Notes: generated by a model not told the origin, from the letters alone. A DNA stretch of 29,786 nucleotides from an uncultured Syntrophomonas sp. (GCA_964510795.1 CAZEDT010000034.1:10905-40690); one strand, 5' to 3'. Shown: positions 2,701-9,795, counted from the first letter of the stretch. Program-made: numbers and translations.

Positions 2701-5700
2701 TTGTCTAAAAAGTTTTTAAGTATAAGTTTTTTGGTATTGATGTTTTTATGTGTGAATTTAACGTTATTTCCACAGTCTACAAATGCAGCCGAATCTATTG
2801 AAGTTTCAACGGTTGAGGACTTGAATAATATGAGTAATAACGTTTACCAAGCTGTTACAATTGACGATGTTAAGCAGTTTTACCTCGCTTGTGATCCTGA
2901 AACCCGAAAATATTCCTTTGTGCTTGGACTCGTTGATGCAGCAACTGGAACACAGATTGTAAATGAGCCAATAATTACGGTCAATGGCGCTATTCCTATT
3001 CCCTTCACTTTAAACTATAATTCCCTGATGCTGGCTGAAGGCCCCATGGGTAAGGGCTGGGGCCACGATTATGAAACCCGCATTGACGAACAGCAGGATG
3101 GTAGCATAAAACTGTCTTGGACTGCTAACCGTTGTAATACCTTCAATCTGACAGGAGTTAATCAATACACATCATCAGACCAAGCCTGTAGATGTGATAA
3201 ACTGATAAAAAATGTCGACAACAGTTTTGATTTAACCCGCAAAGACCAGAGCGTTTATAAGTTTGATACTTCAGGAAAAATCATCCAACAACTGAACGGC
3301 CATGGGCAATCTCTCAACTTTGGCTACAACAGCTCAAACCATTTGCAAACAATAACAGAACCACTGTCTGGAAGAACCTTAACCATTACCTGTAATACAG
3401 CCAATCTAATAGCTTGCATCTCTGATGGTATGATGCGCCAGATAACATTTAGCTATGATGCTCAGAATAATATGACTGGAATTACCTACCCTGATAATAA
3501 GACAACTACCTTCACCTACGATTCCCAGGGACAGGTATTATCGCAAATCGATGGGGAAGGTAAACAAGTATTTCTTGATAATTATGATCAACAAGGGAGA
3601 GTAATCAGCCAGAAAGATGGCATTAACCAGACTAGTACCCTTGTTTACGATACAGGAAAACAGCCAGGCAAAATAGTAACTACCGTAATTAACAAAAATG
3701 GCAAGAGCAAGACATACATCCACAACAGCAAATATGAACTGGAACAGGCTGTAGACGAACTGAATCATACTAACATCTATACATATGATACCAATGGCAA
3801 CCGCACCAGTATAACGGATGCGGCTGCAAATAATACCATTATGACATACGACAACCGGAGCAACTTACTTACTACTACCGACGTGGCAGGCCATACCACA
3901 ACTATGGGCTATGATGACAAAAATAACCTTACATCTATTACTGATACTAATAACAAAACCACTACCAGTAGCTACGATGCTAACAATAATTTAACCTCTG
4001 CGACCGATACCTTAAATCATATTACCAGCTATAGCTACGATATTAATGGCTTATTAGTTAGTGAAACTCTACCCCGATTAGGACAGACCACCTACACCTA
4101 TGAAAATGGTATGTTAAAAACCATCACTGATCCTGTCGGAGTAACACTAAGCTATGGTTACGACAGCGCTGGCAGGGTAGCAAGCATCACCAATGCCAAT
4201 AACAAGACCAGTACCATAAGCTATGATATCCGGGACAACATTATCCAAACCAGAGACCCCTTAAACAATACCGCTAATTTCACCTATGACAGTAACGGAA
4301 ATCTATTGACGAAAACTGACGCCAGAGGCAACACAACCACCTATGCCTATGATGCCAACCTTAAATTGACCAGTGTTACAGATGCTTTAAGTAATATAAC
4401 GAGATATGAATACGATCCAGAAGGAAATTTAACTAAAACTACCGATGCCAGAGGCAACGCAGTAACAGCCGCCTATGATGATAAAGGCAGGCAGATATCC
4501 ATAACAAATCTACTAGGTAATACCAGTAAAGTTGAATATGATGCAGTAGGCAATATTACTGCCCAATACGATGCTTTAAATAAAAAAGCAGTTGCGATTA
4601 GCTATGACAAGCTGTACAACCCCTTAACTGTAACCGACGCATTAGGTAATACAACAACTAACGAATATGACCAATTAAGCCGTCTCAAAAAAACAAGCAG
4701 TCCTTTAAACCAGATTACTCAATATAATTATGATGACTTAAACCGTTTATCACAAAGCACTGATGCTATGAATGGCCTGGCCAGCCAGCAATATGACGAC
4801 GACGGCAACCATACAGCCATGATAGATCCAGCTAACAACACCCTGACCGCTACATATGATCTGGCCGGTAGACTGACAGCTGTCAGTTCCCCAACAGGAT
4901 CTCAACAATATGCCTGCAATCAACTGGGTTACTTGTCAAGCATCACCAATGGTCGTAATCAGAGTAGTGCCTATGTTTATGACGACGCAGGACGCTTAAT
5001 TAGCAAAACTGACTCAGGTGGAACCATTGCCTATACATATGATGCAAACGGAAATGTACTTACTGTGAGTGATACCAGCGGAACTATATCCAGAGAATAC
5101 GATGCACTAAATCGTATAACCCGTTACACCGATACCCGGGGTAACAATATCCAATATGCCTATGACCAAGTAGGGAATATGACCTTGTTGACCTACCCGG
5201 ATGGAAAACAGGTGAGCTACAGCTATGATAGCAGCAACCGCTTAATCCAGGTAACAGACTGGGCAGGAAGAACAACTACTTACATTTATAACCCAAATGG
5301 ACAGCTTACCCAAACAGTAAGACCAGATGGATCAACTGAAACCAGAACTTATGACGATAACGGTAGGATTATTCAGCAAAAGGATAGTACCAAGAATGGA
5401 GAAGTTATCAGTCAGAACGATTTAGCATACGATTCGGCAGGAAGAATAATTTCAAGTAGTCCAGATTTACAAGTATCTGAATCATTAGCTAAGAATAATA
5501 TAACTTATACTACCGATAACCGTCTTGCGAGCATAAACGGGATATCGGTCACCTACGATGCTGACGGTAATATGATAACCGGTCCCCTGAATGGACAACT
5601 AGTAAGCTTTATTTTTGATTCAAGGAACCGCCTTTCGAGTATTGGCAACACAACATACGCTTACGATGCTGAAAATAATAGGATTGGTGTAACAGAAAAC

Positions 5701-6765
5701 GGAATAGAAACTCAATACACGATTAACCCCCATACCCAACTAAGCCAGGCATTGGTGAGAACAACACCGGATGGCAATGAAACGTATTATATTTATGGAT
5801 TAGGACTAATCGGGCAGGAAGAATCGATCGGCTATAGAAACTATCACTATGATCTAAGAGGTAGCACCATAGCTCTAACTGATCGATACGGAACGATAAC
5901 CGATACTTATCAATACGGTCCATACGGGGAATTGGTCAACAAAAACGGTACCTGCTCCATCCCCTTTCTCTATAACGGCAGAGACGGAGTAATGACCGAT
6001 AATAACGGACTGTATTATATGCGAGCCAGATACTATAGTACAGAGATGTTAAGGTTTATAAACCAGGATGTACTCATAGGAAAAATTTCTGATAGTCAAA
6101 GCCTGAATCGGTATGCATATGTTAACGGGCAGCCAATCTCCTTTATTGACCCATTTGGACTACAACTTATGAATTGGGAAAACCTCGGTAAAACCTTTAA
6201 GCAGACAGGGCAGTATTTAGTTTCAAGAGAAGCTGGAGAAGCTTATTTAGATACAATTGGGACAGTAGCAGAGGCTCATGTTATCGCATTTTCGATGACG
6301 GAAGTAGCAGCAGCTGCTGTTGTGGATACTGCTGTAGTCGGGCGGAGGACTTTAAATACAGCTTCTAAGGGTGGGGGAAATGCTAAGTCATTATTTAGGG
6401 GTGAGCGATCTTCTGTAACACCGGATATTACTTTTGAACAAGGTTTATTACCTAAAGGCACTCATGGCAATTTAGAACAACACATAACAAGTAATACAAC
6501 AGCAGGTAACTTCATATCGACAACGTCGGAACGAGGCATTGCAGAACAATTTGCTGGGAAAAATGGTTATGTGTATGAGATTGAAACAACCAATTATATT
6601 GATGTTAATAAGGTACTTGGTGCAAAGTCTCCATTTCCTGAACAAATTGAGCATGCAATTCCAGGAGGTGTAAATCCATCACAAATTAAAGGAGTATGGG
6701 TAATGAAAAATAGTGTTCCGACAGGAGAATTTATCCCAAATCCGGGATTTAGAGGAGTAAAATAA
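2701..6765 (+). CDS. Secreted Rhs/YD-repeat polymorphic toxin (WapA-like) with a variable C-terminal ADP-ribosyltransferase tip
   Basis: The TTG start follows AAAGGAG with a ~10-nt spacer. There is a signal peptide (MSKKFLSISFLVLMFLCVNLTLFPQSTNA|AE). Dozens of YD repeats (Y.YD..GN....TD) run from about nt 3250 to 5950. The Rhs core ends YYMRARYYSTEMLRFINQDV...NRYAYVNGQPISFIDPFGL, with DPFGL at nt 6148-6162. About 200 aa of unrelated tip follow. Confidence 0.9.
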   Translation: MSKKFLSISFLVLMFLCVNLTLFPQSTNAAESIEVSTVEDLNNMSNNVYQAVTIDDVKQFYLACDPETRKYSFVLGLVDAATGTQIVNEPIITVNGAIPIPFTLNYNSLMLAEGPMGKGWGHDYETRIDEQQDGSIKLSWTANRCNTFNLTGVNQYTSSDQACRCDKLIKNVDNSFDLTRKDQSVYKFDTSGKIIQQLNGHGQSLNFGYNSSNHLQTITEPLSGRTLTITCNTANLIACISDGMMRQITFSYDAQNNMTGITYPDNKTTTFTYDSQGQVLSQIDGEGKQVFLDNYDQQGRVISQKDGINQTSTLVYDTGKQPGKIVTTVINKNGKSKTYIHNSKYELEQAVDELNHTNIYTYDTNGNRTSITDAAANNTIMTYDNRSNLLTTTDVAGHTTTMGYDDKNNLTSITDTNNKTTTSSYDANNNLTSATDTLNHITSYSYDINGLLVSETLPRLGQTTYTYENGMLKTITDPVGVTLSYGYDSAGRVASITNANNKTSTISYDIRDNIIQTRDPLNNTANFTYDSNGNLLTKTDARGNTTTYAYDANLKLTSVTDALSNITRYEYDPEGNLTKTTDARGNAVTAAYDDKGRQISITNLLGNTSKVEYDAVGNITAQYDALNKKAVAISYDKLYNPLTVTDALGNTTTNEYDQLSRLKKTSSPLNQITQYNYDDLNRLSQSTDAMNGLASQQYDDDGNHTAMIDPANNTLTATYDLAGRLTAVSSPTGSQQYACNQLGYLSSITNGRNQSSAYVYDDAGRLISKTDSGGTIAYTYDANGNVLTVSDTSGTISREYDALNRITRYTDTRGNNIQYAYDQVGNMTLLTYPDGKQVSYSYDSSNRLIQVTDWAGRTTTYIYNPNGQLTQTVRPDGSTETRTYDDNGRIIQQKDSTKNGEVISQNDLAYDSAGRIISSSPDLQVSESLAKNNITYTTDNRLASINGISVTYDADGNMITGPLNGQLVSFIFDSRNRLSSIGNTTYAYDAENNRIGVTENGIETQYTINPHTQLSQALVRTTPDGNETYYIYGLGLIGQEESIGYRNYHYDLRGSTIALTDRYGTITDTYQYGPYGELVNKNGTCSIPFLYNGRDGVMTDNNGLYYMRARYYSTEMLRFINQDVLIGKISDSQSLNRYAYVNGQPISFIDPFGLQLMNWENLGKTFKQTGQYLVSREAGEAYLDTIGTVAEAHVIAFSMTEVAAAAVVDTAVVGRRTLNTASKGGGNAKSLFRGERSSVTPDITFEQGLLPKGTHGNLEQHITSNTTAGNFISTTSERGIAEQFAGKNGYVYEIETTNYIDVNKVLGAKSPFPEQIEHAIPGGVNPSQIKGVWVMKNSVPTGEFIPNPGFRGVK
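6163..6762 (+). other. Variable toxin tip of the Rhs protein: a ~75-aa linker with an Ala/Val-rich hydrophobic stretch, then a cholera/pertussis-toxin-like ADP-ribosyltransferase domain (about nt 6385-6720)
   Basis: Three segments line up with cholera toxin A1 as I recall it. SLFRGE..PDITFEQGLLPKG matches KLYRADSRPPDEIKQSGGLMPRG (Arg codon at 6397-6399). NFISTTS matches GYVSTS (S-T-T at 6517-6525). VLGAKSPFPEQIEHAIPGGVNPSQIKGVW matches VLGAYSPHPDEQEVSALGGIPYSQIYGW. The last segment aligns without gaps and places Gln (6643-6645) and Glu (6649-6651) at the two catalytic-loop positions. Confidence 0.75.
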
Positions 6766-7188
6766 ATGAGTATTGAAAAGAAGAGTATTAAGCTACGAAT
6801 TAATGAAGAACCTGTGACTGTTGAAGATTTGATTTTGTGGGAAGAAGCGCCTGACGATGAGGAGATGGTTCTCTTAGAGTTGACTGTTTCCGGTCGGATA
6901 ATCAGTGTTAAAGATGAAAATCTCTTTTCAGCATTAACAGCATTAAGGCAAGAGTTAGAGGCAGTAAGTATTCAGATTTTGTGTAATGGTGCTGCTGAAA
7001 ATGTTTATCCGTCACCAATGCAGATGTCAATGGGGCCAGGCAGATTGGCGTATAAATTGTGTATGGGAGTGCAGACTGGAGTTGCGGATATTGTTGATAT
7101 TTTCGATTGTGATGAGAACTTGAAGTTTGTAACGATAGATGAACAATCAAAATATTACTCGGAATGGATAAAAAGTGTTATGAAATAA
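6766..7188 (+). CDS. Putative cognate immunity protein of the Rhs toxin tip (140 aa, acidic, no family recognised)
   Basis: The ATG follows the Rhs stop directly (TAAATG, 6763-6768), which implies translational coupling. The position immediately 3' of a polymorphic-toxin tip is the canonical immunity slot. The N-terminal half is Asp/Glu-rich (EEAPDDEEMVLLE). The function is inferred from context only. Confidence 0.6.
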   Translation: MSIEKKSIKLRINEEPVTVEDLILWEEAPDDEEMVLLELTVSGRIISVKDENLFSALTALRQELEAVSIQILCNGAAENVYPSPMQMSMGPGRLAYKLCMGVQTGVADIVDIFDCDENLKFVTIDEQSKYYSEWIKSVMK

Positions 7189-7231
7189 ATGTATGGGATT
7201 CAATGATAGAATATTGAAGAAAGGCTTAGAT

Positions 7232-7669
7232 ATGGCTATTAAGTTTTATAAAGTAGATGAACAATATGGTTGCCTTTCAAACTTTTCAAAGCACGGATTT
7301 GAATTAGATGGAAAGTATTGGCCCACTAGCGAACACTACTTTCAAGCTCAAAAGTTTGTCGGTACTGAATATGAAGAAGCTGTCAGAATGGCAAAATCGC
7401 CAATGGATGCAGCTCGAATGGGCCGAGATAGGAAAAAACCATTACGCCAAGATTGGGAAGACGTTAAGAATGGAATTATGAGGAAGGCGGTTTTGCAAAA
7501 ATTTCAAACGCATCAAGATATACTTGAAACTTTGTTATTGACTGGAGATGAGGAAATCATTGAAGACACAGTTGATGACTATTATTGGGGTTGCGGCCAA
7601 AATGGAGATGGGTTGAATGTTCTTGGCCTAATTCTTATGGAAGTACGATCAATTCTGAAGGAGACTTAA
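7232..7669 (+). CDS. NADAR domain protein (YbiA/DUF1768 family), predicted ADP-ribosyl N-glycoside hydrolase
   Basis: The protein is near-colinear with E. coli YbiA as I recall it (FY...YG.LSNF....F..DGK.WPTSEHYFQAQKF......E..R...SPM.AARMGRDR.KPLR..WE.VK...MRKA...KF..H......LL.T.......T..D.YWG.G..G.G.N.LG..LMEVR). I prefer the ATG at 7232, which lies 8 nt after GAAAGG, over the track start at 7193. The track start has no Shine-Dalgarno and adds 13 non-homologous residues. Confidence 0.9.
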   Translation: MAIKFYKVDEQYGCLSNFSKHGFELDGKYWPTSEHYFQAQKFVGTEYEEAVRMAKSPMDAARMGRDRKKPLRQDWEDVKNGIMRKAVLQKFQTHQDILETLLLTGDEEIIEDTVDDYYWGCGQNGDGLNVLGLILMEVRSILKET

Positions 7670-7689: not shown

Positions 7690-7734
7690 CCCGCCATCCC
7701 TGCATTGCCTGTAAGGTTGGCGGGCTTTCTTTTG
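7690..7734 (+). terminator. Rho-independent terminator closing the Rhs/immunity/NADAR unit
   Basis: CCCGCCA (7690-7696) pairs with TGGCGGG (7718-7724) and is followed by CTTTCTTTTG. It sits about 20 nt after the NADAR stop codon. Confidence 0.6.
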
Positions 7735-7823: not shown

Positions 7824-8363
7824 ATGGCAGACATAATAAACATCCGCATCACCAAAGATTGTCCAGAGGTTTCACTCATGGATGAAACCGCCCAAGCCCT
7901 TGGCATGTCGAGAAACGAAATGATTATCAAGGCTATTACCATGATGGTTAACTTCGACCGGACATTCTACAAACGTCTGGAAAAATACAGCGAGAACCTC
8001 AAGGTTCCCATGTGGCTGGCGATCCAAAACACCATGGTCAAGAAATGGGCAGAGAGCAGCGCCAAAAAGAACGCATGGGAGAATAACTCAGAAATTCTGC
8101 TGGAGTATTCCTGCACAGAGGATGGCTTCATTCAGCCCAAGGAACTCTATGAAATGGTTTACAAGATAACCTTTGAAGCAGAGACCAAGGAACGCTTCAA
8201 ACAGCTTTCCGAAGATTTGAACAAGGGCATGAAGCTATCAGCAGCAGATCAGGAATTCTACAATGAGTTCAAACCCAAATACGGCTACATCCCCAGACTT
8301 GAACGCGAGAGCTTTGATATCAGCGAAACTTACTGGGAAAGCGACCTAAAGGGGCGTGAGTAG
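7824..8363 (+). CDS. Ribbon-helix-helix (CopG/Arc-like) N-terminal domain protein with a C-terminal domain of unknown function
   Basis: There is a strong SD (AAAGGAGGTG). The N-terminus INIRITKD...LMDETAQALGMSRNEMIIKAITMMV fits the beta-strand/helix/helix RHH pattern. I do not recognise the remainder. Confidence 0.65.
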   Translation: MADIINIRITKDCPEVSLMDETAQALGMSRNEMIIKAITMMVNFDRTFYKRLEKYSENLKVPMWLAIQNTMVKKWAESSAKKNAWENNSEILLEYSCTEDGFIQPKELYEMVYKITFEAETKERFKQLSEDLNKGMKLSAADQEFYNEFKPKYGYIPRLERESFDISETYWESDLKGRE

Positions 8364-8364
8364 C

Positions 8365-8538
8365 ATGAAACGAATCATTTGTCCAAGATGCAAAAAACTG
8401 GCCTACTACGCAGAGAATGGCGCGGTAGAAGCCAAATGTCCCCACTGTGAGTGCTTCGTAAGGGCGGTGTTTGCAGATGGGAAGATCAAGACCAGTATTG
8501 TACCGCCGAGAACCAATCAAAACCACATACCAGCATAG
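8365..8538 (+). CDS. Small zinc-ribbon protein, Mu Com-like
   Basis: MKRIICPRCKKLAYYAENGAVEAKCPHCECFV has a CxxC...CxxC spacing and flanking residues like phage Mu Com (RC.NC.KLL......EI.CPRC). The ATG at 8365 lies 11 nt after AAGGGG. The track start (GTG at 8356) is too close to that SD. Confidence 0.65.
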   Translation: MKRIICPRCKKLAYYAENGAVEAKCPHCECFVRAVFADGKIKTSIVPPRTNQNHIPA

Positions 8539-8569
8539 AGCCATAAGGAACCGGATGAGTTACCACGGA

Positions 8570-8622
8570 GCCTAGCAGACGGAAAGTAGATCGATTTCTA
8601 CTCCTGTTTGTTAGGCTTTTTT
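8570..8622 (+). terminator. Rho-independent terminator after the Com-like gene
   Basis: The outer stem pairs GCCTAGCA (8570-8577) with TGTTAGGC (8609-8616). The inner stem is AGTAGA/TCTACT. A TTTTTT run follows at 8617-8622. Confidence 0.6.
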
Positions 8623-8721
8623 GTTTGGCTCAAAGTTGAGCAAAAGTATCGATTACAGCAAATTTCAATTGAGACTTATTGGTTTCCTGAAAATGAGAAG
8701 CCAATCGAGGGAGGTGAGAAC

Positions 8722-9420
8722 GTGGAAAATGAAAGACTTAACGCAGCACTTGAATATGTGAAGGTTGGCATTCCAGTCATCCCGCTTCATGGCATAAAGC
8801 CGGATGGCTCCTGTACTTGTAAGAACGGGCCTAACTGCACCAGCAAGGGCAAGCATCCAATCTACTCTGGTTGGCAGAATCGTGGTATTGCAGATGCAGA
8901 TGAGATTCAGAACTGGTGGAGAAATAATCCCCATGCCAATGTCGGCATCATCACCGGAGAATCTTCGGGCTGGCTGGTGCTGGACACAGACACCAAGAGC
9001 CAGGGCTTTGGAACACTTCAAACCTTGGAAATGCTCCATGACACACTCCCTGAGACGGTTACCGCCATCACTGGCAGCGGTGGTCAGCATAGAATTTTCA
9101 AATACCCTGACGGGCTAAAAGTCCCCAACATAGCAGGGTTTGAGAAGGGACTCGACACAAGGTCAAACGGCGGTCTGATTGTTGCCCCACCAAGCCGCCA
9201 TGAGAGCGGGGGCAGTTACAAGTGGGCTGACGGATTATCACCATTTAACCGGGAGCCTGCAGAAGCACCTGCATGGCTGGTCAAGCTGATGATGGCCGGG
9301 GTGAACGAACATAAGAAAATTTCCAATGCAACAAACAGAAGCAATGCGCGGAAATCAGTCCCAGAAGGCAGCCGCAACAGCCACCTTGGGATAGGTACTA
9401 GCGTTAAAAAATCCATCTAA
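8722..9420 (+). pseudogene. Bifunctional primase-polymerase (PrimPol, N-terminal domain), 3'-truncated
   Basis: The GTG start lies 5 nt after GGAGGTGA. PrimPol hallmarks are present (GIPVIPLH....P.......GKHP...GWQN, NVGIITGESSGWLVLDTD, GGQHRIFKYP, GLDTRSNGGLIVAPPS.H.SG..Y.W). The reading frame reaches the start of the PriCT-type motif (PEGSRNSHL). It then runs into unrelated sequence and stops, and no helicase or C-terminal domain follows. Confidence 0.8.
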
Positions 9421-9795
9421 TATTAAGTTGAGTTCTTGATCTGTATATATTCTTATTTCCCTTTCACTTTTTATACTGTATGGAATAATGGTTTTGTTTA
9501 GAGATAAATTGCTCCAACCCATTTTCTTTGCGTATTTAAAAAAAGTCTTAAGACTTGTCCAGTAATTGCGAACTGAGCCAGCTGTCAAGGTACCTTCCTT
9601 AAATCGCTTAAAAAGATGATCACGGTATTCTTCAATATATTTATAATTAATATATGTTCAAGACAGTGTTTTATAATTTTCTTCAGATCCCGTTATATAT
9701 TCGGCTGCCCATTTCAAGAATGCAAGAACAGTGGATTTTAAACCAAATATTGAACGGTATTTTATCTGATGAAACGATCGTAGCGTGAGGTGCAT
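9385..9795 (-). pseudogene. Tyrosine recombinase (phage integrase) N-terminal fragment with an in-frame TGA and no catalytic domain
   Basis: The minus-strand frame from the ATG at 9795 reads MHLTLRSFHQIKYRSIFGLKSTVLAFLKWAAEYITGSEENYKTLS*TYINYKYIEEYRDHLFKRFKEGTLTAGSVRNYWTSLKTFFKYAKKMGW...IYTDQELNLIL. The stop codon is at 9660-9658. The segment SVRNY...LK.FFKYA is the SAM-like N-terminal domain signature. The frame then dissolves into the antisense of PrimPol. The junction lies somewhere in 9385-9420. Confidence 0.7.

Follow-up and report, generated by a model that had tools for sequence, protein, structure and literature searches.

The closest described relative of the system reported here is TreX-TriX of Xenorhabdus bovienii, a type VI secretion system (T6SS) Rhs toxin together with its immunity protein (PDB 8S2M, 8S2N and 9GCO; PMC11606950). 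In the crystal structure of this pair, TriX helix 80-86 enters the catalytic cleft against the R-S-ExE residues of the toxin (PMC11606950). Here, we describe a related cassette in a stretch of 29,786 nucleotides (nt) from an uncultured Syntrophomonas sp. (GCA_964510795.1, CAZEDT010000034.1:10905-40690), referred to below as the window and numbered from its first letter. In this cassette, the C-terminal tip of an Rhs protein, an ADP-ribosyltransferase (ART) by fold and motif, is followed by a 140-residue protein (ORF2) and by a NADAR protein. An initial annotation, made from the sequence alone, had read the three genes as an effector module in which the toxin is countered by both a stoichiometric binder and an enzyme that removes ADP-ribose.

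Scabin and ScARP are free-standing secreted Streptomyces enzymes with a C-terminal disulfide and a Trp stacking residue, unlike the window tip. The Gln of the ScARP Q-x-E loop positions the guanine or cytosine amine, as indicated by mutagenesis of Q162 (PMC12945103), and homologues of ScARP and Scabin were stated in a 2026 paper to be restricted to Actinomycetes (PMC12945103). The guanine- and cytosine-linked ADP-ribose (G-ADPr and C-ADPr) that these enzymes make on DNA and RNA is stripped by YbiA-type NADARs, E. coli YbiA included (PMC11125620, PMC12945103). NADARs were the sole hydrolase family found to reverse guanosine ADP-ribosylation on RNA and are inactive on phosphate-linked ADP-ribose (PMC11833690). 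The NADAR gene that goes with ScARP is unlinked to it (SCO5461 versus SCO5665), no binder immunity has been described (PMC12945103, PMC11543638), and the statement that the SCO5665 NADAR "may act as immunity" is a suggestion of its authors only (PMC12945103). Like the window cassette, DarT1-NADAR and YarT-YbiA have a NADAR adjacent to an ART; there it neutralises the transferase by reversing guanine ADP-ribosylation (PMC11543638, PMC11125620), and in YarT-YbiA it is of the same minimal YbiA type as in the window. Unlike the window toxin, DarT1 and YarT are ARTD (H-Y-E) enzymes of intracellular toxin-antitoxin or anti-phage systems, with no secretion scaffold and no separate binder.

The combination of a binder that occludes the active site with an enzyme that removes ADP-ribose is known from Tre1-Tri1, where the two are fused, and from Bxa-Bsi-BAH, a polymorphic ART toxin of a Bacteroides stercoris prophage with two immunity proteins (PMC11699363), which are encoded by two adjacent genes as in the window. 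Unlike in the window, the eraser of the Bxa and Tri1 systems has an ARH fold and acts on N-linked protein ADP-ribose, the binders are unrelated to TriX, and the targets are proteins. In a 2012 census of polymorphic toxins, Imm-ARG was the only enzymatic immunity protein. Finally, TreThr, the RhsF tip of Chromobacterium violaceum, resembles the window tip in being an Rhs-delivered R-S/T-E ART with TreX and ScARP as its nearest structures (PMC13617354). Since TreThr modifies RNA, namely the anticodon loop of tRNA-Thr, probably at G35 (PMC13617354), interbacterial toxins of this fold can have nucleic-acid targets. Unlike the window toxin, TreThr is delivered by a T6SS and has only one immunity protein, RhsFI (for which occlusion of the site by a C-terminal helix is predicted), and no hydrolase has been described for it.

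TreX/TriX pairs, NADAR erasers of guanine- or cytosine-linked ADP-ribose and binder-plus-eraser immunity are thus known separately, and what is new in the window is their presence in one cassette. The initial annotation had taken the combination to be uncharacterised in Rhs/WapA-type toxins. No description of an ART-TriX-NADAR cassette was found in the searchable full-text literature, with subscription-only papers (e.g., de Souza & Aravind 2012) outside this scope, but the pairing of a binder with an eraser has precedents in Bxa-Bsi-BAH and Tri1.

The window tip is a TreX/Scabin-family ADP-ribosyltransferase with a Q-x-E loop

The last 130 residues of the tip (6373-6762, + strand) form an R-S-(Q-x-E) ART of the TreX/Scabin family. 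In Pfam, residues ~1240-1350 of the Rhs protein matched the Scabin-like family PF22596 (E=1.1e-14; 54.9 bits against a cut-off of 27) and, more weakly, Enterotoxin_a (1.5e-8). Among PDB sequences, the best match was TreX (1.5e-13), followed by Scabin (6.5e-11), ScARP (6e-8), LT-IIb and cholera toxin A (4e-4), the last of which covers the same C-terminal stretch that had been aligned with cholera toxin by eye in the initial annotation. An AF2 model of the tip built with 36 homologues (predicted local distance difference test, pLDDT, 89) retrieved with Foldseek, in this order, TreX (TMt 0.88), CT-A1, Scabin, ScARP (template modelling score, TM, ~0.79), LT, pierisin-1 and pertussis S1, all with E <=1e-6. 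Profile and structure searches therefore agree with the earlier reading of a cholera/pertussis-fold ART rather than another fold, and place the tip more exactly in the TreX/Scabin family.

The tip has both the motif and the fold of the R-S-E (cholera-toxin-like, ARTC) class. Its key residues are R1233 (6397-6399), S1273-T-T (6517-6525), Q1315 (6643-6645) and E1317 (6649-6651), the last two being part of an ADP-ribosylating turn-turn (ARTT) loop with the sequence F-P-E-Q1315-I-E1317 (6634-6651). P-E-Q-x-E keeps its Gln and Glu without exception in the 36 aligned relatives and at the 31 genome loci, and the Arg of LFRGERSS and the NF(I/V)STS block are almost invariant. The alignment and the model also show a conserved C-terminal strand and an IPNPNF/Y motif as common features of the tip family. 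The 200-residue tip contains no cysteine, and its ART core is neutral (pI 7.0). By homology and genomic context, NAD+-dependent transfer by the last 130 residues of the ~200-residue tip is predicted.

The window tip resembles TreX in that it is the C-terminal tip of an Rhs protein, has TreX as its best match in both sequence and fold, is free of cysteine and carries a C-terminal beta-strand extension. In the TreX-like clade, activity depends on thioredoxin 1 bound to this extension (PMC11606950). The TreX paper sets TreX-like toxins apart from disulfide-bearing Scabin-like ones (PMC11606950), and on this scheme the absence of cysteine puts the tip on the TreX-like side. However, TreX carries an E-x-E loop and ADP-ribosylates FtsZ, whereas the window tip has Q-I-E, with a Gln that is invariant across its subfamily and sets it apart from the E-x-E of the TreX-like clade. 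TreX is also delivered by a Gram-negative T6SS, while the window Rhs protein carries a putative Sec signal peptide and lies in a low-GC Gram-positive context; the TreX paper makes no mention of Q-x-E, Gram-positive hosts or NADAR (PMC11606950). With Scabin and ScARP, the window tip shares the Scabin-like Pfam match, a Q-x-E loop whose Gln follows an aromatic residue by three positions, and a NADAR that counters or would counter the transferase. The Q-x-E of the pierisin/Scabin/ScARP group is thus present in the tip, while the Trp stacking residue and the C-terminal disulfide are not, and the score for the NCBIfam equivalog ADPrt_Strmyces is 48.6 bits against a cut-off of 250.

ORF2 is a TriX homologue and the third gene encodes a YbiA-type NADAR

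ORF2 (6766-7188, + strand) encodes an acidic protein of 140 residues (pI 4.35) that has no match in Pfam or NCBIfam and that the initial annotation had left without a family. That assignment had to be revised. ORF2 has 61 close homologues, and a profile built from 28 homologues matched TriX (8s2m_A) at E=5.2e-25 with hmmsearch. Moreover, its AF2 model (pLDDT 91) retrieved the TriX chains of 8S2M, 8S2N and 9GCO with TM scores of 0.84-0.89 and root-mean-square deviations of 2.0-2.2 A, and Foldseek returned nothing significant besides these chains. ORF2 is therefore a homologue of TriX, which rules out that it is an orphan family, and the toxin-immunity pair of the window is a new member of the TreX-TriX family. 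In the profile alignment, the inhibitory helix of TriX (80-86) corresponds to ORF2 residues 84-90 (PMQMSMG), which are also predicted to be helical and lie in the most conserved block of the family, CNGAAKNVYPSPM, with an invariant YPSxM. Because ORF2 is homologous to a protein whose mechanism has been defined crystallographically, the role of active-site binder that neutralises the tip is supported, and with it the stoichiometric binder of the initial annotation, given the active-site occlusion seen in the TreX-TriX structure.

The TriX-like family comprises 1980 clusters at 50% identity, 1312 of them with E <=1e-10. Several of its members have composite architectures: six proteins of ~280-290 residues (P0132, P0139, P0155, P0157, P0160 and P0177) contain two TriX-like stretches, making them tandem double-immunity fusions, and P0246 consists of HEAT repeats with a C-terminal TriX-like domain.

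The third gene (7232-7669, + strand) encodes a YbiA-type NADAR of 145 residues with intact catalytic residues. It matched Pfam PF08719 (E=4.5e-39; 134.7 bits against a cut-off of 35.1) and NCBIfam TIGR02464, "riboflavin biosynthesis intermediates N-glycosidase" (151.9 bits against a cut-off of 73.7), and gave a sub-threshold match to the "NADAR family anti-phage protein" model NF053876. Because of the name of TIGR02464, routine annotation hides the link of this protein to a toxin. The near-colinearity with E. coli YbiA noticed in the initial annotation corresponds to 52% identity (2b3w, E=2.5e-45). Mapping onto the ADP-ribose-bound structure of the P. nicotianae NADAR and the mutagenesis of Schuller et al. 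showed that E34, K41, E111, D116 and W119 of the window protein correspond to E43, K50, E125, D130 and W133, and these five catalytic and ligand residues occur without change in 19 NADARs of cassettes as well as in E. coli YbiA and the P. nicotianae protein. A Glu at the position of E111 defines the YbiA subfamily (Schuller et al.), to which the window protein belongs by its Pfam and TIGRFAM matches, its catalytic Glu and Lys and this Glu. By contrast, NADARs associated with DarT1 (BC4488 type) have Asp at this position and carry an N-terminal extension that the window protein lacks; together with an ARTC (R-S-E) toxin, these features set the window cassette apart from DarTG1. On the strength of its family and conserved residues, the window NADAR is predicted to hydrolyse base-linked ADP-ribose.

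NADAR accompanies full-length Q-x-E toxins in low-GC genomes

To place the cassette in a wider context, we compiled 110 loci, of which 31 came from a tip-alignment scan with one genome per species, 75 from a metagenome scan with the immunity alignment and 4 from look-ups. All loci were scored with hidden Markov models for the three proteins, and the class counts given below require at least 600 nt of sequence past the immunity gene. A TriX-like gene directly followed the tip in 30 of the 31 genome loci. NADAR was adjacent in 24 of 25 full-length Q-x-E cassettes with a GC content below 0.5 (23 of 24 if one duplicate contig is removed), and the named genomes in this class were all Bacillota, including Clostridium, Lachnospiraceae, Christensenellaceae, Alkalihalobacillus, Streptococcus cuniculi, Eubacterium, Acetatifactor and Lachnotalea. 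The usual position of the NADAR gene was 9-66 nt downstream on the same strand. Conversely, NADAR was adjacent in only 1 of 7 full-length Q-x-E cassettes with a GC content of 0.5 or more, in none of five full-length E-x-E cassettes, that is, loci of the TreX type, in none of five cassettes that combined a 3' toxin fragment with an immunity gene, and in none of 35 TriX-like genes without a toxin upstream. The single high-GC locus with a NADAR, from a Fibrobacteres metagenome-assembled genome (L024:6806-7270), has it on the opposite strand, convergent and ending 39 nt from the TriX-like gene.

Two Xenorhabdus loci are part of the E-x-E set, in agreement with the published TreX locus. A clean contrast between Q-x-E and E-x-E cassettes within one phylum could not be drawn, as the E-x-E cassettes were all Gram-negative-like and high-GC Q-x-E cassettes also lacked NADAR; a query with TreX yielded only four short Xenorhabdus proteins. 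NADAR is thus correlated with a full-length Q-x-E toxin in a low-GC genome and not with Q-x-E alone, which does not demand a NADAR since high-GC Gram-negative Q-x-E cassettes exist without it.

Several further observations argue for a functional linkage of the three genes rather than a historical accident. First, the trio was found behind Rhs, PT-HINT and unannotated N-termini. Second, pairwise identities co-varied in Mantel tests (ART-immunity r=0.78 and immunity-NADAR r=0.54, both p=2e-4; ART-NADAR r=0.45, p=0.006), part of this co-variation being common host phylogeny. The immunity gene evolved fastest (mean identity 44%) and NADAR slowest (62%). Third, in Lachnotalea glycerini DSM 28816 the slot is held by a 187-residue NADAR of a different lineage (L012:1174-1734), which keeps the catalytic residues, shares 33% identity with the window NADAR and branches outside E. 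coli YbiA, suggesting an independent recruitment or a replacement. Fourth, in a metagenome contig (L110:1-1310; JGI 3300042596, Ga0466696_014905), a Q-x-E tip (…SPHPYQNEFAIPGG) is followed by a single 293-residue ORF that joins a TriX-like domain (1-138) in frame with a NADAR domain (149-286; Pfam 1.1e-39). This fusion may represent a bifunctional immunity architecture like that of Tri1, with NADAR as the eraser, although it was seen on a single contig where a sequencing error is possible. Given its strict adjacency to the tip and the ART-immunity co-divergence, we infer that ORF2 binds its cognate tip. On this evidence, a three-gene module with dual immunity, as put forward in the initial annotation, is very likely.

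In at least 35 loci, all on metagenome contigs (L037-L043, L051-L082, L088-L100 and others), a TriX-like gene lacked both a NADAR and an ART in the 200 nt upstream. Many of these loci have a GC content of 0.23-0.29 and lie beside small HEAT-repeat-like ORFs typical of immunity arrays (e.g., L056:2881-3324 and L063:2884-3324), and in L035, L050 and L067 only a 3' toxin fragment is kept. The toxin-less and toxin-fragment loci look like orphan or displaced immunity cassettes. In four Planctomycetota loci (L017:4811-5029, L018:4414-4632, L021:6643-7017 and L027:6655-7032), an ORF of ~73 residues directly past the TriX-like gene resembles the C-terminal strands of the toxin itself (GGWVYEIDD…IVGAWQV…GNIVGEFKPNPNY). 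The corresponding C-terminal region of TreX binds thioredoxin (PMC11606950), and the short ORF might act as a decoy or as a third component, or be a remnant.

Proposed mechanism and target of the cassette

The model that we propose combines an Rhs-borne ART tip, a TriX plug and a NADAR eraser with a nucleobase target, and we regard it as probable as a whole. A WapA-like Gram-positive Rhs toxin would be exported by the Sec pathway, and its Rhs cage would release the tip of ~200 residues, presumably against other bacteria. The TriX-family plug would provide a first layer of protection by binding the tip 1:1 and pushing its helix (YPSPMQMSMG) into the NAD+/substrate cleft. The co-transcribed NADAR glycohydrolase would provide a second layer by removing ADP-ribose already attached by toxin that had escaped the plug. 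The modified group would be a nucleobase, guanine at N2 or possibly cytosine at N4, in the nucleic acid of the target cell. We speculate, given that Q-x-E cassettes of Gram-negative phyla do without NADAR and that orphan immunity genes were never seen with one, that the plug is sufficient for incoming toxin and that the eraser matters mainly to the producer, possibly because a Sec-exported precursor has to be unfolded for export and cannot stay bound to the plug. T6SS Rhs proteins, unlike such a precursor, are loaded folded.

A nucleobase target is the best inference because NADARs are so far known to cleave only ADP-ribose on the exocyclic amine of guanine or, in the case of Glu-type NADARs, also of cytosine, be it in DNA, RNA or nucleotides, and the most likely one because the Gln of the pierisin/ScARP Q-x-E replaces the arginine-specifying Glu of TreX, which belongs to a motif typical of arginine-modifying toxins (PMC11606950). 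The TreX/ScARP-like Rhs tip TreThr, with its tRNA anticodon-loop target (PMC13617354), lends further plausibility to a nucleic-acid target. We hold this assignment with moderate confidence, below that in the three-gene module.

Several observations weigh against it. TreX, which is closer to the tip than Scabin and ScARP in both sequence and fold and is its closest solved relative, modifies a protein, FtsZ. The aromatic residue of the ARTT loop is Phe as in TreX and not the guanine-stacking Trp of ScARP, and the ART core is neutral, whereas pierisin-1 and CARP-1, which strongly modify double-stranded DNA, have very basic clefts (PMC12945103). Furthermore, NADAR is dispensable for some Q-x-E toxins, since six of the seven high-GC Q-x-E cassettes (Planctomycetota, Proteobacteria and Bdellovibrionales) have a TriX-like gene but no NADAR, and the same holds for one low-GC full-length Q-x-E cassette, on the Epulopiscium contig L019 (Bacillota). 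The binder alone may also suffice against incoming toxin, because orphan TriX-like genes were never accompanied by NADAR.

Most of these points would equally suit a toxin that modifies a protein, either at an FtsZ-type Arg or at an Asn-type acceptor as for C3, with a different purpose for NADAR, such as the clearance of free ADP-ribosylated by-products or the removal of a hypothetical N-linked protein ADP-ribose. The best sequence and fold match, the homology of the immunity protein to TriX, the ARTT Phe, the neutral core and the Q-x-E cassettes of Gram-negative phyla that manage without NADAR all fit this explanation, and targets are known to vary within the TreX family, TreXPm not labelling FtsZ (PMC11606950). 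In the studies cited, however, NADAR substrates were guanine- or cytosine-linked ADP-ribose and none was protein-linked, and protein-directed ARTs pair with ARH-type erasers (Tri1, BAH and Imm-ARG). Moreover, the first Glu of E-x-E, which is required for arginine transfer, is Gln throughout the subfamily, and the E-x-E cassettes of the census were without NADAR. We consider both a protein target and these other purposes of NADAR unlikely, if more probable than the two alternatives that follow.

A less probable alternative is that free guanine nucleotides or nucleosides (GTP, GDP, (p)ppGpp and the like), and not polymeric DNA or RNA, are what the toxin attacks, with NADAR restoring the pool. 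ScARP and Scabin modify mononucleotides and nucleosides in vitro (PMC12945103), the ART surface is neutral and not basic, and the minimal YbiA-type NADAR of the window is without the nucleic-acid-binding N-terminal extension of the DarT1-associated NADARs. Against this, ADP-ribosylated oligonucleotides of DNA and RNA are substrates of E. coli YbiA and of further enzymes of its type (PMC11125620, PMC11833690, PMC12945103), and the related TreThr acts on a specific tRNA (PMC13617354). No feature of the sequence discriminates between free nucleotides and nucleic acid, and we think an attack on the nucleotide pool improbable.

Finally, that the NADAR gene is a housekeeping ybiA (riboflavin-intermediate N-glycosidase) lying downstream by chance is highly improbable despite its TIGR02464 score and its identity to E. 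coli YbiA, and the synteny census (24 of 25 low-GC cassettes against 0 of 35 orphans) rules out a bystander, because NADAR tracks full-length Q-x-E toxins in independent low-GC loci of various genera whichever scaffold carries the tip, mostly on the same strand with 9-66 nt gaps, ends, in the window, at the one terminator that also serves the toxin operon, diverges in step with both the toxin and the immunity gene, is replaced by a NADAR of another lineage in the same slot of L012, is fused to a TriX-like domain in L110 and is absent beside the orphan TriX-like genes. The pattern that the initial annotation had named as refuting, a NADAR gene in the same syntenic position in relatives without the tip, was thus not seen in the census.

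The conserved ART-TriX-NADAR cassette provides a genetic argument for a switch from protein to nucleobase targets in the Q-x-E branch of the TreX family. It would carry Scabin/ScARP-like chemistry, recently described as limited to Actinomycetes, into Firmicutes of the gut and soil. The cassette supplies a natural, operon-encoded substrate-enzyme pair for these NADARs, whose physiological role is still debated, and a compact system (a toxin of ~130 residues, a plug of 140 and an eraser of 145) for studying how work is split between immunity layers. Part of this question is why the NADAR gene is retained next to intact toxins alone and chiefly in Gram-positive contexts with Sec export. Whether Bacillota in general deploy widespread secreted toxins (Rhs, PT-HINT and other) with TreX-like Q-x-E tips that modify guanine or cytosine in the DNA or RNA of rivals, with a dedicated NADAR for protection, is a broader proposition on which we find ourselves evenly divided. 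If it is true, these tips would be the first interbacterial toxins of the ARTC type outside Actinomycetes to modify bases, NADAR would be a nucleic-acid-repairing second immunity protein and a new enzymatic immunity class in polymorphic toxin systems, and the long-enigmatic YbiA-type NADARs would gain a natural role.

Rhs precursor, operon layout and genomic neighborhood

The coordinates and residue numbers of the initial annotation for the Rhs ORF, the DPFGL motif and the catalytic residues were all verified in the sequence, as were the TAAATG coupling, the length and acidity of ORF2, the 43-nt gap and the 145-residue NADAR ORF. The Rhs polymorphic toxin precursor (2701-6765, + strand) is 1354 residues long, a length also given by an independent gene call (Logan assembly), starts with TTG preceded by an AAGGAG Shine-Dalgarno sequence 9 nt upstream and ends with TAA at 6763-6765. 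Pfam assigned it 22 RHS repeats (RHS_repeat, 2e-109) and a DUF6531 domain (8e-11), and an N-terminal segment resembling a Sec-type signal peptide, MSKKFLSISFLVLMFLCVNLTLFPQSTNA/AE, was read off the sequence by eye. The Rhs shell ends with ...NRYAYVNGQPISFIDPFGL, of which DPFGL (6148-6162, + strand) is the closing motif. The DPxGL motif is the autoproteolytic release site in Rhs proteins (PMC11606950), and DPFGL is the predicted site at which the tip would be released by autoproteolysis. An RHS/YD shell, a DPxGL motif, a variable tip and a following immunity gene identify the protein as an Rhs polymorphic toxin; between loci, the tip and the immunity gene vary and the type of shell differs.

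Between the DPFGL motif and the ART core, residues 1155-1224 (6163-6372, + strand) form a pre-toxin linker of ~70 residues with a hydrophobic, helix-like stretch, AHVIAFSMTEVAAAAVVDTAVVG. The linker has no Pfam match, has low pLDDT at the N-terminus of the model and is not conserved among tips on other scaffolds; it may act in entry or translocation as a membrane-entry segment.

The stop codon of the Rhs gene is directly followed by the ATG of ORF2 at 6766 (TAA-ATG), and the NADAR gene starts 43 nt past the ORF2 stop behind its own Shine-Dalgarno sequence, GAAGAAAGG. The unit is closed, as had been proposed, by an intrinsic terminator (7690-7734, + strand), the only one for the toxin genes and NADAR together, which consists of a CCCGCCA...TGGCGGG hairpin (7690-7724) followed by a T-run, CTTTCTTTTG (-22 kcal/mol, z=-3.1).

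Directly past the terminator, the stretch from 7824 to 9600 looks like a mobile-element remnant beside the toxin cassette. It contains a 179-residue protein of no family, a 60-residue zinc-ribbon-like ORF, a Prim-Pol domain protein (8608-9420) and a short integrase-like fragment on the opposite strand (9355-9588, - strand). On the other side, the gene just 5' of the Rhs gene (45-2600) codes for a surface protein that combines one RHS repeat and an F5/8 type C (discoidin) domain with eight Big_2 Ig-like repeats, whose DNA is highly repetitive. This protein may serve the Rhs toxin as an adhesin partner.

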